Assembly (NCBI GenBank): GCA_965226555.1
Contig: CBDDDG010000026.1
Span: 1-33,773 of the forward strand
Direction of reading: 5' to 3'
DNA: 33,773 nt
Source of the DNA: Salinispira sp.
GTDB lineage: Bacteria > Spirochaetota > Spirochaetia > DSM-27196 > Salinispiraceae
Shown: piece after piece, positions 9,001 to 30,000 of the stretch
Position numbering within the stretch: the stretch's first letter is position 1
Layout of the letters: every line of letters begins with the position of its first letter
Program-made: the position numbers

Positions 9001-12000
9001 GGGGCTGGTCGGAGGCTGCGCCTCCTGCTCGCCCATGCGTCCGGGGTGGTCTCGACCGCTACCATAAGCCCATTGTCATCGGCAAGACAATGCTTCTTCG
9101 CTCCAAAATGAAATTCCCCATTCTTTTTCGTCCACCTCATATCGGTATCTACTCTGTCCGCAAACTTCTCCGGTTCCCGCTCTAAGGATTTATTATCCGA
9201 TTGAGCGCATTCATCACTGTCTGTGCGATCAACGATCCCGCGGGGTTTTCTCGGACTTCTGGTAATGCTCGCATCAACTTTAACCGCTTTCTTAATCATA
9301 ATCCCCCGCGTTTCAAGCTGTCGGTTTATTTCATTAAGCAGTCGGTCAAAGATTCCCGCTTTCGTCATGGCTGTGCGAAAACGGCTGAGAACACTGTGAT
9401 CCGGCACATCATCTTCCACAATAAGACCGCAGAAATTCGATGCTCCCATGCTGTCATTCACCATATCTTCCACACCATAATCGCTACAAAACTTTTGCTT
9501 TGGAAAATTGTGCTTGCACAATTTCCAATAGCAAAAGTTTCAGATTCGAAATGCTTTCTCTGTGCTTAGCATTCTCCTATGCTATAGAAAGTTTTGCCTG
9601 AGGCAAAACTTCTATTGAGATCATTCCACATTCCCAATAGAAGCATTTTGAACAGCAGCAGGCCAGGGTAGGCAGCCCTGCCGACCGCGCTGCTTCCTCG
9701 GGTATCGTGTTCTGTAATAATTTCCTCAATGGGCTTCCAGTCGATAATCTGGTCAATTTTCCGATAGAAGGTGTTTTTCCGTGTACGTCTTTCCATACTG
9801 TCTGCGACAAATGACATAGTGTGCTCCTGAGATTTGATCATGGTAAGGATCATAACATATATATGAGGACTGATTACAGCCAGAAAGCAAAAAATCGAAA
9901 GAAAAATTCAAAAAAGTTCATATGGGATGTTGACACTCTGGATAAATGAACGGTACTATAATATCACCGATGAGACTGTTGCCATGCAATGATCTCGTAT
10001 AGCACATTGGGAAACGAAATATCAAGAAAAAATGTGAAATGGAATAAAAACTTTTGCCTCACGCAAAATTTTTTGTTATATTTATAGAAAGTTTTGCTAC
10101 TGGAAATTGCGCTTGCACAATTTTCCAATGCAAAACTTTGTTATAGACATCAGATTTTCTGAATGACAAACAAAAGGATATCATCATGATAAAACCATTA
10201 GCCCTCATCCTGCTTCTCATGGGAAGCATATTCACAATTTCTGCAACCGGCTCGCGTGAGACCTTTGACCCCCACGCAGGAACTAACAGCAGTGTGGAAG
10301 AAATAAGCGGAATTCCGCTCTCAAACCTTCCGGCAGATTTCGCGTACCCCATCCAGTACAGTCCGGAAGAATGGCGCCGACTTCTCGGCGACGATTTCCA
10401 GTACCATGTATTGCGGGAAAAGGGCACTGAGCGTCCATGGTTCAATACATACAACGATAACAAACAAAAAGGTATGTATTATTCAGCAGCTACCGGACAG
10501 CCCCTCTTCAGTTCCGAAACAAAATATGACTCCCGAACCGGATGGCCGAGCTTCTGGGAACCCATAGACCCCGAGGCAGTACATCTGCTTCCGGACTATT
10601 CCCACGGAATGCTGAGAGTTGAGGTTGTGGATAGCCTGAGCGGTTCTCATCTTGGGCATGTCTTTCCCGACGGACCCGATCCGACCGGACTCCGCTACTG
10701 TTTGAATTCGGCATCGCTCATATTTGTTCCCGAAGGCGAAGCCCCCCCTGTTATCAATGTGGATATTTGAAAAATACTCGGGCATCGGTTTTTTGTATGT
10801 CATCTTCAGTAACAGGACGGGTCAGCGCCAAGCAGGCAAGCAGATGAGGACATCCGGGAATGGAGAAATTTGTTCCGCGTATTTCGGTTCCGTCTGCGGT
10901 ATGCAGCCATACATCATTCAGGCAGCGCAGCTCCATGGTACAGCTCAGCATATCTTCTCCGAGAAGTTTTATTACCGCTTCCTTTCGTGTCCAGAGGGTC
11001 ATAAAGCGTCGGCGCCGATCCTGCGCGCTCCCCGCCGCATACACATAGTTCCGCTCATCATCCTGAAAAAAATACCGGAGAATGGCATTCATTGCTTCGG
11101 GCTGCAGTTCACGATGAACACTCTCAATATCGACGCCAATCTCACTGCCAATCTCATTGGCAATCTCATTGGCAATCTCATTGGCAATTTCATCGCCCTC
11201 TGCTATGGCCAGTATAACGGCATCGGAGGTAAAACTAAGATTAAAACCGGTGTATATGCTCCCGTCCGCTCGAATAAGCTTCGGCTTCCCTCTCCGGCCC
11301 TGCGCAAGGGTATCGTTAGTACCCAGCGGAGCCATATCATTCTCCCTGAAATGGACATCCAATATCCGGCGGAGAAAAATGCGGCGCCGGAAGAAATTGT
11401 CATGATCTTTTTTCCGCAGAAATTGATGGTGATGTTTCGCTTCGCTCCGGGCAGCGAACTCATGCCGGGCAGCGAACTCATTAATGAACGATTGGGGAAT
11501 ACAGTCTGTCAGTGAGGGGAGAAAATACATGTTCACTACATGTGTATTGCCTTGGGCATGCCCTCGGGCATTTTTTCTTTGAAACATTCCTGCATGTATA
11601 GTACTCTATTTAGGTTCCTACAACAATATTTGGGACATGGAGAAACTTTTGAATTGGAGTATTTTGTGACTACACATAATAGACGAATAGTTATTACCGG
11701 ACTGGGAACAATTAATCCCCTTGGGTCTACAGTCGAAGAGTTTTGGAATAATTTATGTACAGGGAAAAGCGGAACTCGAAAAATTACCAATGTTAACATT
11801 GGCGACTACCATGTGCAGATTGCCGCTCAAACCGATATTCCCGATAATATCCGCGACTACTTCAAACAGAGAAAGATGGTAAGGCGTCTCGACCGCTACA
11901 TACTCTTCGGACAGTGCGCAGGCGCTCAGGCAGTACGCGATGCGGGACTCAGCGAATATCGCTTCCCGGAGCGTATAGGAGTACTTATCGGAACCGGAGA

Positions 12001-27000: not shown

Positions 27001-30000
27001 ACATTGGGAAAGGTCAAGCGATTTCCATTCTTTTACACCTGACTTACCCGCAAGGAGGTTCTGAAAATACTCCTCAACCGTATCTCCCAGAGGATTGATG
27101 GTGGCCATGCCGGTAATTACAACTCGTGTATTCATAGTAACTCCAATATATACATTACCTTACAAGTTCCTGTATGGCTCCGAGGGTTCCGGCTGGTTTT
27201 GCCCGTAATCCTTTATAAAAGGATTTCCATAAACCACTGAGTACCTTACCGGGGCCAACTTCCAATACTATATCATGTTCTTTACCTGTTATAATTTTTT
27301 CATCTAAAAGATACTGCTCAGATGCTACCCATTGTACCATAGATACAATCTGTTCACCCGCGCGTTTTTTGGCCTCGGAGGCATTCTCAAGGGGCCGCGC
27401 TGTTACATTTGAAATGAGCGGAATACGGGGGTCATTGAAGGGAAACCCTGCAATGCGCTTTTCAAATTCTTTTCGGGCATCTTCCAGAAGAGGAGAGTGA
27501 AAGGGTCCGCTTACTCTCAGGCGCACAACCTTCATGGCGCCCGCTTCGGTGAGGGCTTCTTCGGCTTTTTCAAGCCCTTCGGCCGTTCCCGCAAGAACAA
27601 TTTGGGTTGGGGAGCTGTAGTTTGCAATGAAAACGGAGGAAATGGGCTCAACACAGTCCCGGACTTCTTCAAAAGAAAGACCAAGTACCGCCGTCATGCC
27701 GGAGGGACCCTCGGGAGTATCTGCCTGACGGGCTCCTTTTTCCATGAGTTCACCGCGGATGGCAACCACTCGGAAGAGTGTCTCGGTATCCAAAACGCCT
27801 GCCTCATGCAGCGCTGCATATTCACCAACTGAAAAGCCAAGGACAGCGGCAGGTTTCAGTCCCCGTTCACGCAGAAGTGCCGCCGCAGAAATGTTAACAA
27901 GGCTTATTGCTGCCTGAGTATTATCGGTCGACTTCAGATCATCCTCTGTGCCGTTGAACAGCAGATCGGCCATATCTTTCCGCAACACCGCGTTGGCGAC
28001 TGCGAAGAGCTTCCGCACCGTCTCACTGTGCTCATACATATCCTTTGCCATGCCCGGATACTGGGCACCCTGACCGGGAAATAAAAATACTGTGCTCATG
28101 TCAATTCCTTTTCATAGAAAAAACTTTTTCATACATTCTGTGTGTGCGATAGTGTTCTGCTCCCCAATTTTCCAGAAGATTACGCAACGCGGTATTTTCT
28201 TCAAGAATCCAGCTGAATTCAGCAGAATTGTATCCCTTTCCTTCGCCCTTTGTGTAGAGTTCATAAATGAAAGCAGCATCAATACCTTTATTGTGATATT
28301 CCCTGCGAACCCCGAAGGCCGCAATGCGCAACTGCTGTGCTCTGCTCTTTGCCCTGAGAAGTTTGAAAACCCCGAAGGGGAGGAGCCTGCCGTTCAGAGT
28401 ACGAAGTGTGTCGTTCAAATTGGGGATGGGAAAGGCAAAACCAACCGGAACATTATCAACATAGGCAAAGAGCGTAACTTCAGGATCAAGTACGAGTTTG
28501 AGATTTTTTGCGAGCTGTCTGAATTCTTCTTTATTCCACGGGACATAGCCCCAGTTCTCCGCCCAGGCCTCATTCCATATTTCCCGCACAACATCCACCA
28601 TACTATCCCATTCCTTCATACGTGTCCGCCGTATTTCGACATTGTTCCGCTTGAGGGCTATTTTTGTAACACGGATAATCTTTTCACTCAGCCTGAGGCG
28701 GGTATCCATTCTGTATGAATACAGATCCGCAGCCTTGCGATATCCCGCATCCGCATAAAAACTGCCATAGTATGGCGGTGAATAGGGCATTTCAATAACG
28801 GGGGGAATTTCAAAACTATCAATTTGGTTGCCGATCGATCCATTAATATTTCCATTGACCGGCCCAATAACACGCTTCATGCCCCGTTTGCGGAGCCAGA
28901 TTTCAGCCTGCGAAAAGAGGGCTGCCGCAACCTGCGCATCGTCAATGCACTCAAAGAAGCCGACAAATCCGGTTCCTGCCTGCTGATGCGCGCAATAATC
29001 AGCATCTACCATGGCAGCAATTCTCCCAACGACACTGCCATGTTTGCCGCCATTTTTGCTGCCATGTTTGCTGGCAAGAAATACCTGAAGCTCCGCGTGC
29101 TCATAGAATCCATTATGTGCGCGGTCAAAAATGTGCTTAATATCCATATTAAGCGGGGGCACCCAGGCATTATAGACCCTCCTCTGCCCCCGATATACCA
29201 GATAGGGAAGTTCAATAAACTGTTTAATGTCGTTTTTTGATTCTAGGGGATAGATATCTACCATTGTCTCTCCAAACAAAGCTTATTACTGAGAATTGTA
29301 CTCAGCATAATAGTACTTTATTAAAATTGCAATATGGTAGGGATAGGTCTGGGTGAATTCAATTCCCGGTAAATGGTCGTATTGGTGGATTTTTCTTATA
29401 CTCGCTATATCGCAGAAGTCGGGAAGGCGGCGCGCTTATGGTTGCATTGACCGTAAGATTGAAATTGTGCTTGACGCACAGTTTCTCAATGAGTAAAATA
29501 CTCAGGAATTCTGTGATGTGTTGATGATTGCAGATCCTAAATGTGTATGAGAGTTCCACCAATGGTCTGAAAAAACCTTGTTGAGGAAGTTCTGCCTTAG
29601 TAGATTTTATGATTGACAGATTTTTTGAGCACCAATATACTTTTAGCTTATGAGACAGTTGCAACGATCTCAAATTCCTCAATTTTGTACGACCCTAGGA
29701 GTATTACAATGACTCTTCACACAAAAAACGCTTTCAAAGTGTTTGTTCTGGTTGTTTTCATAACAATTCTTGTAGCCTGTCCGTCTGTAATAGACAACCC
29801 AGTTGCTGTAATGGACAACCCAGTTGCCTCTGCGGCAGATATCATTCTTGGTACTGGCGCTAATCATCCGTATGGTATTTGGACTGACGGTACGACAATG
29901 TGGGTGGTCAATTTCTTTGATTATACTATTTATGCCTACGATCTGAACAGCAAGGAACGTGATTTGGAAAAAGATATTGATCTTACTGCCGGGAATTTGA

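Follow-up and report, generated by a model that had tools for sequence, protein, structure and literature searches.

A conserved gene set of Salinispira sp. joins methyl-branching enzymes of the antibiotic-polyketide type, a private fatty-acid line and relatives of ceramide-forming enzymes. Its likely role is to build a methyl-branched chain on a dedicated carrier protein, and this chain probably ends in a ceramide-type membrane lipid. A preliminary description of this DNA had predicted sphingoid lipids with a methyl branch, or amino lipids related to them, and the gene content supports this as the likely product. We consider a branched sphingoid lipid of some kind quite probable and propose more tentatively, at slightly under an even chance, an iso-branched ceramide made by de novo formation of isovaleryl-ACP, elongation, condensation with serine and N-acylation. 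Such a branched-ceramide route was not found in the literature searched. Overall, the earlier observation was confirmed in part and its interpretation supported in part.

Organization of the locus

The window (the whole stretch of DNA analysed) comprises 33,773 nucleotides of Salinispira sp. contig CBDDDG010000026.1. Eleven previously named genes were found in place on the minus strand, in the series bCerS-like GNAT, FabD, ketosynthase (KS), KR, HMG-ACP synthase (HMGS), ECH1, ECH2, a 6.1 kb insert, enoyl-ACP reductase (ER), ACP, alpha-oxoamine synthase (AOS) and FabZ-like dehydratase (DH). The region 10754..29264 had been described as one operon, which it is not: all the named genes lie there, but a FabF-type ketosynthase gene (11540..12916, TIGR03150 490.7 bits) is on the plus strand, convergent on the operon, and a minus-strand gene for a Sfp-type phosphopantetheinyl transferase (PPTase; 10754..11587, PF01648) lies beyond it. 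This FabF was absent from the earlier gene list, and its true start is probably about 40 codons inside the annotated ORF.

The insert of about 6.1 kb (15878..22001, no strand assigned) splits the run between ECH2 and ER, as had been noted. It holds an FN3/DUF285 (PARCEL) lipoprotein gene, one complete and further partial Rpn genes beside it, and palindromic repeats, and its sequence is multi-copy in the genome, as judged from contig depth. Nearly all relatives have ECH2 directly next to ER, and the insert is outside the pathway. In this genome it may hamper expression of the genes downstream of it, which counts against our preferred reading.

Conservation and distribution

We matched 117 related loci and kept the best 80. 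Among these 80, the order KS-KR-HMGS-ECH1-ECH2-ER-ACP-AOS was intact in 56 and broken up in 2, while 22 loci were too short to reveal it, so the recurrence claimed for this order holds, far beyond chance. KR was present in 75 of the 80, nearly always between KS and HMGS, and ACP adjoins AOS in nearly all loci reaching both.

Conservation across free-living Spirochaetota, as first proposed, was not borne out; the distribution is patchy. Cluster-type HMGS (58% identity or more) was found in 7/7 family genomes, 13/60 order relatives and 16/300 phylum genomes, and the cassette also occurs outside Spirochaetota, including a variant form in cultured Nannocystis radixulma. Cluster-type HMGS and AOS were both found in 12 of the 60 order relatives and neither in 46; the two with only one are incomplete genomes with the gene at a contig end. 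This co-occurrence counts in favour of our preferred reading.

Outside the phylum, a Serratia plasmid carries KS-KR-HMGS-ECH-ECH-ER plus DH, ACP and AT without AOS; its KS is split over two frames, and the stretches read held no second KS, which suggests that this KS type condenses. A Bradymonadales locus has KR, ER, ACP, AOS and DH preceded by a FAAL-ACP-KS protein, with no HMGS, and both Myxococcota versions (L113, L114) carry two ERs.

Beta-branching and reductive enzymes

The earlier claim of a beta-branching cassette of polyketide type, linked with an ACP, an SPT-like enzyme and a bCerS homologue, is supported. HMGS (23868..25091) is of CurD/PksG type, with CurD (E 2e-70) and PksG (E 1e-63) as its best solved relatives and catalytic Glu79, Cys111 and His238 invariant; on contig C22, a separate mevalonate HMG-CoA synthase gene is the neighbour of an HMG-CoA reductase fusion gene. 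For ECH2 (22002..22802), a predicted methylglutaconyl-ACP decarboxylase of PksI/CurF type (NF005496, 242.5 bits, above the cut-off of 215), CurF ECH2 and PksI were the sole PDB matches at E 1e-20 or better, both at about 1e-35. ECH1 (22799..23881), the predicted HMG-ACP dehydratase, matched PF00378, NF005498 (107.6 bits) and PDB crotonases (E 2e-18); the copy here bears an insertion and a tail rich in Pro and Ala. The SDR-type, FabI/FabL-like ER (15035..15877) has FabI structures as its best PDB matches (E 1.5e-17) and NF005975 as best model, below its cut-off. The FabG-like 3-ketoacyl-ACP reductase KR (25109..25852; TIGR01830, 208 bits) and the 3-hydroxyacyl-ACP dehydratase DH (12970..13503; PF07977, TIGR01750) also scored below their TIGR cut-offs.

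Carrier protein and acyl loading

The ACP (14777..15019) is of the beta-branching donor type: its best PDB match is the CurB donor ACP (E 1.6e-9), with other ACPs at 1e-3 or weaker, and NF005502 is the best model, below cut-off. Its motifs (Ser39 in GANSLD, and IPRxEL) are kept in 72/73 sequences; aligned with donor ACPs, it is without the Arg of their SVDR motif. That it is dedicated, as proposed earlier, gained support from Bradymonadales, where ACPs 56-63% identical to it stand beside AOS with HMGS missing. It is also supported by a query with the E. coli AasR/FAAL-type ACP loader, which had no match in this genome; the only AMP-binding protein here is about 700 aa. A PPTase from one of two families accompanies 34/53 related loci reaching DH, and the one here is predicted to activate the ACP.

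FabD (malonyl-CoA:ACP transacylase, 27155..28099; TIGR00128, 247.8 bits) had been counted as a dedicated cassette enzyme. This genome and 7 others of the family gave one match apiece; as the only FabD found in each of these 8, it is shared with housekeeping synthesis. FabH, AcpP (contig C11), FabG, two FabF, FabZ and acetyl-CoA carboxylase-like genes lie elsewhere.

Ketosynthases

The KS (25849..27135), predicted to prime or to condense short chains, has NF005490 as best NCBIfam model (318.8 bits, below cut-off); in the tree it stands in a separate clade that lies between the PksF-type decarboxylases and FabF. Its catalytic Cys176-His317-His354 is intact. An alignment showed Cys in 74/75 sequences, Trp three positions past the second His in 73/75 and GHN(L/F) in 66/75. 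The retained Cys had been raised as a doubt, being unlike decarboxylating KSs; its presence was confirmed but the doubt is eased, as Cys fits a condensing, self-priming KS. Mapped to E. coli FabF, the pocket positions are His/Asn at 107-108, Asp at 193, Ser/Met at 202 and Trp at 343, and the acyl pocket looks crowded, narrow and short-chain. I108/F202 of FabF are described, in passages of PMC9006962, as a gate for chains beyond C6-C8, so these bulky or polar residues favour early branching.

The cluster FabF, found in 47/53 related loci reaching DH, forms its own clade separate from the genome's two other FabFs. It has Asp at the Ile108 back-gate position (Asp or Glu in 39/53 loci), which is odd for a long-chain elongase and counts against our preferred reading.

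The oxoamine synthase and N-acyltransferase

The PLP-dependent AOS (13503..14765; Lys267 in GTLSKS), the only family member found in this genome, had been called SPT-like. Its best solved relative is Sphingobacterium SPT (E 2e-77; cysteate enzyme, E 5e-55), and with the GTLSKS motif this bears out the likeness. The SPT label itself is not supported: AOS falls short of all three NCBIfam SPT cut-offs, scoring 313.7 bits on NF047600 (cut-off 640) and higher on generic Kbl/BioF models, while SPTs of sister-family triads score about 502. In trees it forms its own clade, alongside enzymes that are uncharacterised, and an AU test (p 0.29) neither established nor rejected a joint SPT-plus-cluster clade. 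An alignment mapped by hand onto Sphingobacterium SPT positions, as given in passages of PMC10196870, showed that N117, H138, S185, T241, S243 and K244 are kept. Of the cysteate-enzyme marks in excerpts of PMC13692747 (Lys280, Ala249, Glu187 and loss of Asn117), AOS has none. The partner-subunit loop is altered (Ser81 is replaced by Ala, as it is in cysteate enzymes, Arg82 by Pro, Asn85 by Ser and Met271 by Asn), which counts against our preferred reading.

The GNAT (28101..29264), a predicted ceramide synthase of the bCerS/YghO family, is 34% identical along its length to E. coli BL21 YghO (387 aligned positions, E 2e-70); YghO is grouped with Caulobacter CC_1154 as an N-acyltransferase gene in passages of PMC9386255. 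It is the only homologue in this genome, and orthologues (39%) lie within CerS-epimerase-SPT triads of sister-family genomes. Among the best 80 of 117 loci, 24 have a CerS homologue upstream, downstream or divergent, by lineage; these differing positions point to a functional link. It is missing from the other 56, many of them short, which counts against our preferred reading. A Delta4-desaturase gene (PF08557, E 8e-15) immediately follows AOS-CerS at one locus (L080), and of 53 loci reaching DH, 14 have genes for a glycosyltransferase or LPG-synthase-TM protein, while an epimerase-fold reductase occurs in 8. The missing ceramide reductase had been an objection, which is eased by epimerase-fold candidates on contigs C22 and C16; the assignment stays tentative (26% identity to the E. 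coli candidate), which counts against our preferred reading.

Lipids of a cultured relative

In Salinispira pacifica, a cultured species of the family, HMGS is 82% identical (P0127). Passages of PMC4511686 report for it a major but unidentified aminolipid together with iso-C13:0, iso-C15:0 and C16:0 2-OH; the fatty-acid table there gives iso-C15:0 at 11.7%, iso-C14:0, ante-C15:0 and ante-C17:0 and, covering fatty acids only, no mid-chain or polymethyl acids. Iso-C15:0 had been cited as evidence for the cassette and loses that value, since iso-C14:0 and the anteiso acids are beyond the cassette's reach and indicate that S. pacifica forms branched primers by another way. A putative fused 2-oxoacid dehydrogenase E1 in our genome likewise counts, with alternative branched primers, against our preferred reading. 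Absence of lpxC had also been tied to the cassette; no lpxC turned up in 61 genomes from the order, the majority of which have no cassette, and its absence is uninformative.

Proposed pathway and alternatives

PksG/H/I chemistry underlies the HMG- to methylglutaconyl- to methylcrotonyl-ACP steps proposed here. We infer substrates and product from the gene content, order, conservation, catalytic residues and homologies described above. PPTase would activate the ACP and the shared FabD load malonyl. The narrow-pocket KS, with its Cys, would yield both acetyl-ACP and acetoacetyl-ACP, one ACP serving as donor and acceptor, and HMGS, ECH1, ECH2 and ER would then give HMG-, methylglutaconyl-, methylcrotonyl- and isovaleryl-ACP. 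FabF and/or KS, with KR, DH and ER, may extend this to an iso-odd acyl-ACP of predicted length about C15-C17, which AOS would release with L-serine as iso 3-ketosphinganine. N-acylation by the GNAT and reduction by an epimerase-fold enzyme from elsewhere (the C22 or C16 candidates) would complete the ceramide; many relatives also carry glycosyltransferases.

HMGS cassettes of polyketide pathways work on elongating chains. The methyl might accordingly be added later or repeatedly to a serine ceramide, giving mid-chain or isoprenoid-like bases (every fourth carbon) with the isoprenoid pathway unused. No sequence feature confines HMGS to the first cycle or lets the branch position be read, the two ERs of Myxococcota are what one would predict where enoyl intermediates of both kinds, branched and plain, arise, and the Bradymonadales FAAL-ACP-KS reads as late long-chain extension; a terpenoid-pattern base, aplidiasphingosine, with methyls at 5, 9, 13 and 17, is described in a passage of PMC2444003. 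The short-looking KS pocket, the lack of a match for a long-acyl loader in this genome and the S. pacifica table, for fatty acids, argue against such branching, which we consider unlikely, though worth weighing. Slightly less probable is another amino acid (alanine or glycine, 1-deoxy-type) or a short amino-ketone or N-acyl amino-alcohol metabolite in place of a bulk membrane ceramide. The divergent AOS with its altered loop, the polar or bulky gate residues of both ketosynthases and the Serratia cassette without AOS are compatible with it, as are the many 1-deoxyceramides of unknown bacterial origin in anoxic water (passages of PMC11334938). Against it, the AOS PLP subunit retains serine-type residues, the recurrent glycosyltransferases point to a C1 hydroxyl left free, bCerS and a Delta4-desaturase are among the neighbours, and presence in 7/7 family genomes with the sole FabD in the operon suits a core membrane lipid.

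We regard as improbable that the genes form no single channel, the cassette priming general synthesis with isovaleryl (ACP as acetyl donor, AcpP as acceptor) and AOS and bCerS drawing on the bulk pool. Donor ACPs are indeed the closest to this ACP, FabD is shared, the housekeeping set is complete and S. pacifica has 11.7% iso-C15:0 in its table; but an ACP that served only as donor would have no use for a KR, DH, ER and FabF of its own, and the ACP stays beside AOS both in the Bradymonadales locus without HMGS and in nearly all loci reaching them.

Comparison with known systems

The closest systems in PDB and NCBIfam for HMGS, ECH1, ECH2 and ACP are the HMGS polyketide cassettes (curacin CurB/CurD/CurF; bacillaene AcpK/PksG/PksH/PksI; thiomarinol plasmid pTML1), whose Glu-Cys-His catalytic set is kept here. 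They differ in that our locus has neither a modular PKS nor an acceptor ACP domain nearby, has Cys in its KS where six aligned reference cassette KSs have Ser (once Met), lacks the donor Arg in its ACP and adds discrete KR, DH, ER, FabF and AOS. The myxobacterial Aib route also makes an isovaleryl primer from acetate, by HMG synthase, dehydratase, decarboxylase and reductase. The four activities match those proposed here, but the Aib route acts on CoA with an MvaS-type synthase and a CoA-transferase-fold decarboxylase, whereas ours are ACP-dependent, polyketide-type enzymes.

The proteobacterial AasR-AcpR-Spt-bCerS-CerR pathway (Caulobacter; E. coli BL21 ECD_02850-02854), in the passages of PMC9386255, likewise has a special ACP by its AOS, and our locus shares the bCerS homologue (34%) and, in relatives, nearby epimerase-fold reductases. 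Here, in contrast, an AasR-type loader was not found, and the predicted site of chain building is the ACP, which is of another class; AOS shares 31% identity with E. coli Spt and falls outside the SPT models. Cysteate fatty acyltransferases of sulfonolipid synthesis belong to the same family as AOS and share Gly-Ala at the 81-82 loop, but the Lys280, Ala249, Glu187 and Asn117-loss marks in excerpts of PMC13692747 are not in AOS, which matches them less well than SPT (E 5e-55 vs 2e-77). In SgaAB of Pseudomonas fluorescens MYb115 (PMC12134224, whose main text mentions neither HMG nor spirochaete), a dedicated chain-building synthase likewise feeds an oxoamine synthase with SPT activity; SgaA is a single iterative type I PKS yielding straight C24-C28 sphinganines, whereas the Salinispira set is discrete, type II and beta-branching, with a bCerS.

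Organization of the cluster

Genes in the window were called from six-frame open reading frames and profile scans. Along the minus strand, starting at 29264 and ending at 12970, these encode a predicted ceramide synthase of the bCerS/YghO family (GNAT), FabD, a ketosynthase (KS), a FabG-like ketoreductase (KR), an HMG-ACP synthase (HMGS), two crotonase-fold proteins (ECH1 and ECH2) and, after an insert, an SDR enoyl reductase (ER), an 80-residue ACP, an SPT-like PLP-dependent alpha-oxoamine synthase (AOS) and a FabZ-like dehydratase (DH). A plus-strand FabF gene (11540-12916) converges on DH, and a PPTase gene (10754-11587) lies past it. 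The preliminary description treated the whole as a single operon and omitted FabF; the run of genes is present, but because FabF converges on DH with PPTase beyond, the span holds at least two transcription units. Scanning for promoters and terminators returned counts close to those of shuffled sequence (38 vs 28.7 and 25 vs 20.8).

The 6.1-kb insert between ECH2 and ER carries FN3/DUF285 lipoprotein and Rpn genes. Contigs aligned to the window cover both flanking halves, and none crosses the insert. Rpn (YhgA-like) genes and gene fragments, with tandem repeats of GxEKG type, occupy 15878-22001 and also 2850-4085, and imperfect palindromic repeats of one family (~40-70 nt) lie on either side; contig depth indicates that the genome or community contains this DNA many times over. 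Gene content of a host-associated style was seen at 1-2458, 5984-8248, 8589-9521, 19729-21570 and 29613-31229, including an adenine methylase with a GmrSD/HNH nuclease, FN3/FG-GAP and FN3/DUF285 lipoproteins, a beta-propeller repeat lipoprotein and an IS5 transposase.

Distribution of the cluster

Related loci were collected with an HMGS-alignment scan, and the best 80 of 117 matched loci were compared. The order KS-KR-HMGS-ECH1-ECH2-ER-ACP-AOS was unbroken in 56 of these 80, while 22 were too short and 2 were broken up. Among the same best 80 of 117, 53 loci reached DH, and these carried the cluster FabF (47), PPTase (34), GNAT (21), FabD (20), glycosyltransferase or LPG-synthase-TM genes (14) and an epimerase-fold reductase (8). 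Judged by record titles, most loci came from Spirochaetota, with 5 from Aminicenantes, 4 from FCPU426 and 1 each from Firestonebacteria and Chlamydiae; one cultured spirochaete was named among the cassette matches. Matches on plasmids from Photobacterium, Enterobacter, Methylosinus, Streptomyces and Kitasatospora were PKS/NRPS-linked cassettes and were used as references.

The cluster had been called conserved across free-living Spirochaetota. By whole genome, its HMGS is universal in the Salinispiraceae (7/7) but patchy beyond: 13 of the 60 relatives in the order have it, and so do 16 of 300 genomes across the phylum (≥58% identity). All such counts are descriptive only, because kin are not independent. 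Two loci from distant Spirochaetota (41% identity; L217:6703-8745 and L218:6451-11035) have KR-HMGS or KS-KR-HMGS, and no ECH, ACP or AOS was found nearby in the stretches read. They were left out of the cluster counts, and may represent either remnants or another use of the KS-KR-HMGS trio.

Beta-branching enzymes and ketosynthases

HMGS-dependent beta-branching is familiar as a tailoring step of polyketide assembly lines. The cluster HMGS is nearest to CurD and PksG and keeps Glu79, Cys111 and His238; in a tree it falls among polyketide HMGSs and well away from the mevalonate enzyme (29% vs the mevalonate synthase). A mevalonate role for it was ruled out, as a separate mevalonate HMG-CoA synthase on contig C22 adjoins an 840-residue protein in which an FMN-dependent (IDI-2-like) domain is fused to HMG-CoA reductase (L007:772-4580). 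ECH1 is of the dehydratase type and ECH2 of the decarboxylase type seen in beta-branching cassettes; ECH2 scores above the cut-off of the PksI-type model, and its only matches among solved structures at E 1e-20 or better are CurF ECH2 and PksI. The ACP is of donor type, with the curacin donor CurB as its nearest solved relative. Its IPRxEL motif is present in 72 of 73 sequences, the donor Arg is missing, and SLD(I/M) stands at the site of SV(D/N)R or similar in aligned donor ACPs.

The KS forms a well-supported clade between the Ser-type cassette decarboxylases and FabF. As previously noted, it retains its Cys, unlike the usual decarboxylating KS (74 of 75 sequences, with both histidines also retained), and the Ser-for-Cys replacement of such enzymes was not found. 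It has the decarboxylase motifs GGxN and GA(L/V)xD, and a Trp three residues past the second His in 73/75. Aligned to E. coli FabF, KS positions 107-108 are His/Asn (with the register in doubt by one residue), 193 is Asp, 202 is Ser/Met and 343 is Trp. In FabF itself, the way into the long-chain pocket is gated by Ile108 and Phe202 (PMC9006962). From these residues, our reading is that the KS probably acts in priming with short chains. In the cluster FabF, Cys-His-His and Phe202 are kept, and 39 of 53 have Asp or Glu replacing the hydrophobic back-gate Ile108. No modular PKS whose acceptor ACP domains the cassette could act on was found in the window or in related spirochaete loci.

Predicted ceramide synthase, oxoamine synthase and candidate reductases

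The identification of the GNAT as a ceramide-synthase homologue is borne out by its full-length similarity to YghO of E. coli BL21, with 34% identity across 387 positions (E 2e-70). YghO is listed with Caulobacter CC_1154 as a ceramide N-acyltransferase (PMC9386255); that pathway is described in PMC11324152. The nearest named protein belongs to a Salinispira sp. MAG (97%), no solved structure was matched, and ESM Atlas matches gave generic family names only. The GNAT is linked to an SPT-like gene through AOS at the same locus, and its orthologues occur in CerS-epimerase-SPT triads. Homologues of bCerS were matched in 42 of 61 order genomes, a few of them weakly, and several genomes have more distant paralogues. 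Plain GNAT-epimerase-SPT triads without the cassette are found in two sister-family genomes (L211:1397-4938 and L212); together with L216, these sister spirochaete families have plain CerS-epimerase-SPT or SPT-CerS clusters, which suggests ordinary ceramide synthesis in the order.

The AOS has Sphingobacterium SPT as its nearest PDB relative. GTxSK(S/A) and SYNYLG are present in 65 of 65 sequences. The cluster enzyme has the PLP-lysine motif GT(F/L)SKS and the His/Asp/Arg scaffold; a Tyr at the Asn52 position lies inside SYNYLG, a motif of other SPTs. Hand mapping on the Sphingobacterium SPT alignment, with positions from PMC10196870, showed that N117, H138, S185, T241, S243 and K244 are kept. 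The partner-subunit loop reads GAPxxSGT in 58/65, and the SPT-type GSR(F/M)LNGT was not found. AOS scores 313.7 on the SPT model NF047600 (cut-off 640; sister-family SPTs ~502) and falls in its own clade of uncharacterised enzymes, whose sister relation to the SPTs was neither shown nor rejected (AU p 0.29, 24 rows). A cysteate (sulfonolipid) enzyme was also considered and rejected: Lys280, Ala249, Glu187 and loss of Asn117 mark cysteate fatty acyltransferases (PMC13692747), and AOS, mapped by hand through the same alignment, has none of these and instead Cys297, Ser266, Ser208 and Asn141.

A neighbouring sister AOS clade (40-45%; L115-L178, from Gemmatimonadota, Acidobacteriota, Bacteroidota and others) lies beside genes for a YegS-type lipid kinase, an acetoacetate-decarboxylase-fold protein, a CDP-alcohol phosphotransferase, an acyltransferase and a zinc dehydrogenase, which suggests another uncharacterised amino-lipid cluster.

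No ceramide reductase gene was found in the window. Elsewhere in the genome, two proteins of the epimerase fold are candidate ceramide reductases by phylogeny: one (C22:182631-183608), on a long branch, falls in the clade of the E. coli CerR candidate and triad epimerases, and the other (C16:81755-82807) groups with other cluster-adjacent epimerases.

Genomic context

The genome (93.5% complete, 6.7% contamination) has a housekeeping set of AcpP, FabH, FabG-FabF, another FabF and FabZ, besides the mevalonate HMG-CoA synthase, and only two PP-binding matches. Given these counterparts, the cluster KS, KR, DH, ACP, FabF and HMGS are extra copies. FabD is not: it is single in each of 8 family genomes and lies inside the cluster in 7, the eighth being fragmented. 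AOS and GNAT are each the sole family member found in the genome. One AMP-binding protein was found, and as for an acyl-ACP synthetase loader, E. coli AasR and a Bradymonadales FAAL were unmatched by tblastn in this 93.5% complete genome. In a check for a branched-chain keto acid dehydrogenase, whose absence would have spoken for the iso-primer route, the genome showed PDH, a fused E1 and a long E1 of 2-oxoglutarate type, with zero matches to POR_N. On C22, a fused 2-oxoacid dehydrogenase E1, with E2 and E3, lies beside a sorbitol-6-phosphate-dehydrogenase-like gene (L204:5201-10508).

Proposed pathway and alternatives

From the observed genes, their order, residues and homologies we infer every catalytic step of the following route. 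The KS would convert malonyl-ACP to acetyl-ACP and acetoacetyl-ACP; HMGS would give HMG-ACP, ECH1 and ECH2 methylcrotonyl-ACP, and ER isovaleryl-ACP. Elongation by FabF/KS, KR, DH and ER would be followed by condensation of the chain with serine by AOS, N-acylation by GNAT and then reduction; many relatives would also glycosylate the product. Some form of methyl-branched sphingoid-type lipid is a likely product; that it is specifically an iso-branched ceramide is the favoured but tentative prediction, falling a little short of probable.

Salinispira pacifica, whose HMGS is 82% identical to that of the cluster, has a major unidentified aminolipid, with iso-C15:0 (11.7%), iso-C13:0 (2.1%) and C16:0 2-OH (1.8%), and also ante-C15:0 (4.3%), iso-C14:0 (1.6%) and ante-C17:0 (0.6%) (PMC4511686). 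In a complete family genome, an OlsC/LpxO-type 2-hydroxylase gene adjoins PPTase. The reported lipids agree with the model and are no test of it, and the ante- and iso-C14 acids imply that branched primers arise by another route too. Branching later in the chain, or repeatedly, is unlikely. Its boldest form, a carrier-bound fatty acid synthase that mimics isoprenoids and, from malonyl units alone, makes terpenoid-pattern (5,9,13,17-methyl, aplidiasphingosine-like) or other multi-methyl bases, and so a new ceramide class in a lipid-A-free spirochaete envelope, we consider improbable. Tetramethyl sphingoid bases are documented in a tunicate (PMC2444003), and theirs is the pattern that repeated branching would give. 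Were it true, the Cys-retaining KS and dual-role ACP would mark a primary-lipid form of the polyketide beta-branching machinery, and branched sphingoid bases now attributed to marine animals might originate from such bacteria.

That AOS joins another amino acid, or that the product is short, is somewhat less likely still than late branching; the residues AOS shares with SPTs and the loop in which it departs from them bear on opposite sides of this question. Least probable is that the co-located genes have uncoupled functions.

Several natural variants of the cluster were seen. In Nannocystis radixulma (L114), as in a Myxococcota MAG (L113), the order is AOS-AT-DH-KS-KR-HMGS-ECH-ECH-ER, with a second ER and the ACP. 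Bradymonadales loci retain KR-ER-ACP-AOS-DH, with ACP 56-63% and AOS 55-57% identical to those of the cluster. One of them (L109:4577-11763) has a FAAL-ACP-KS protein upstream and, reaching far enough to show an HMGS, has none; this ACP class therefore serves AOS without branching. In L110, GNAT directly adjoins ACP-AOS, and L080 has the order AOS-GNAT-sphingolipid Delta4-desaturase. Serratia fonticola plasmid pSF001 (L181, L195) has stand-alone AT, ACP, DH, KS, KR, HMGS, ECH, ECH and ER, several of them frameshifted and partly duplicated in the record, with neither AOS nor PKS in the stretches read.

The combination of FAAL-ACP-KS with KR, ER, ACP, AOS and DH recurs in L109, L110, L111 and L112 (Bradymonadales and one Myxococcales MAG), a candidate branch-free sister pathway and undescribed sphingolipid route.

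The preliminary description also tied the cassette to a missing lpxC. This link did not survive: none of the 61 order genomes yielded an lpxC match, and most of them have no cassette, so its absence says nothing specific, and loss of lipid A was ruled out as an explanation of the cassette.

Comparison with known systems

No description of this gene set was found in the open-access papers searched, and none of the papers searched tied sphingolipids to spirochaetes; the main text of a Black Sea study makes no mention of spirochaetes (PMC11334938). Nannocystis radixulma is a second cultured strain with a form of the set. If our reading of an iso-branched ceramide pathway holds, a private type II synthase builds its own branched chain from acetate; besides acyl-CoA or AasR-loaded ACP, and type I PKS, this would be a third way of supplying bacterial oxoamine synthases with chains. 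The cluster would then also establish a new clade of AOS, a PksF relative that keeps its Cys, and an ACP with a dual role. It would further give the major aminolipid of S. pacifica a testable identity and suggest which organisms could produce the branched ceramides of anoxic waters, of sediments and of marine animals.

Each part has a precedent, in beta-branching cassettes, in the specialised-ACP ceramide pathway and in the PKS-fed SgaAB pathway (PMC12134224). Unlike beta-branching cassettes, the cluster has a KS that is not a Ser-type decarboxylase and no modular PKS, and unlike the AasR-AcpR type of ceramide pathway, its genome gave no match to AasR and its AOS lies outside the SPT models. 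The cluster resembles the sum of the three systems in its working and, given these differences, is a member of none.
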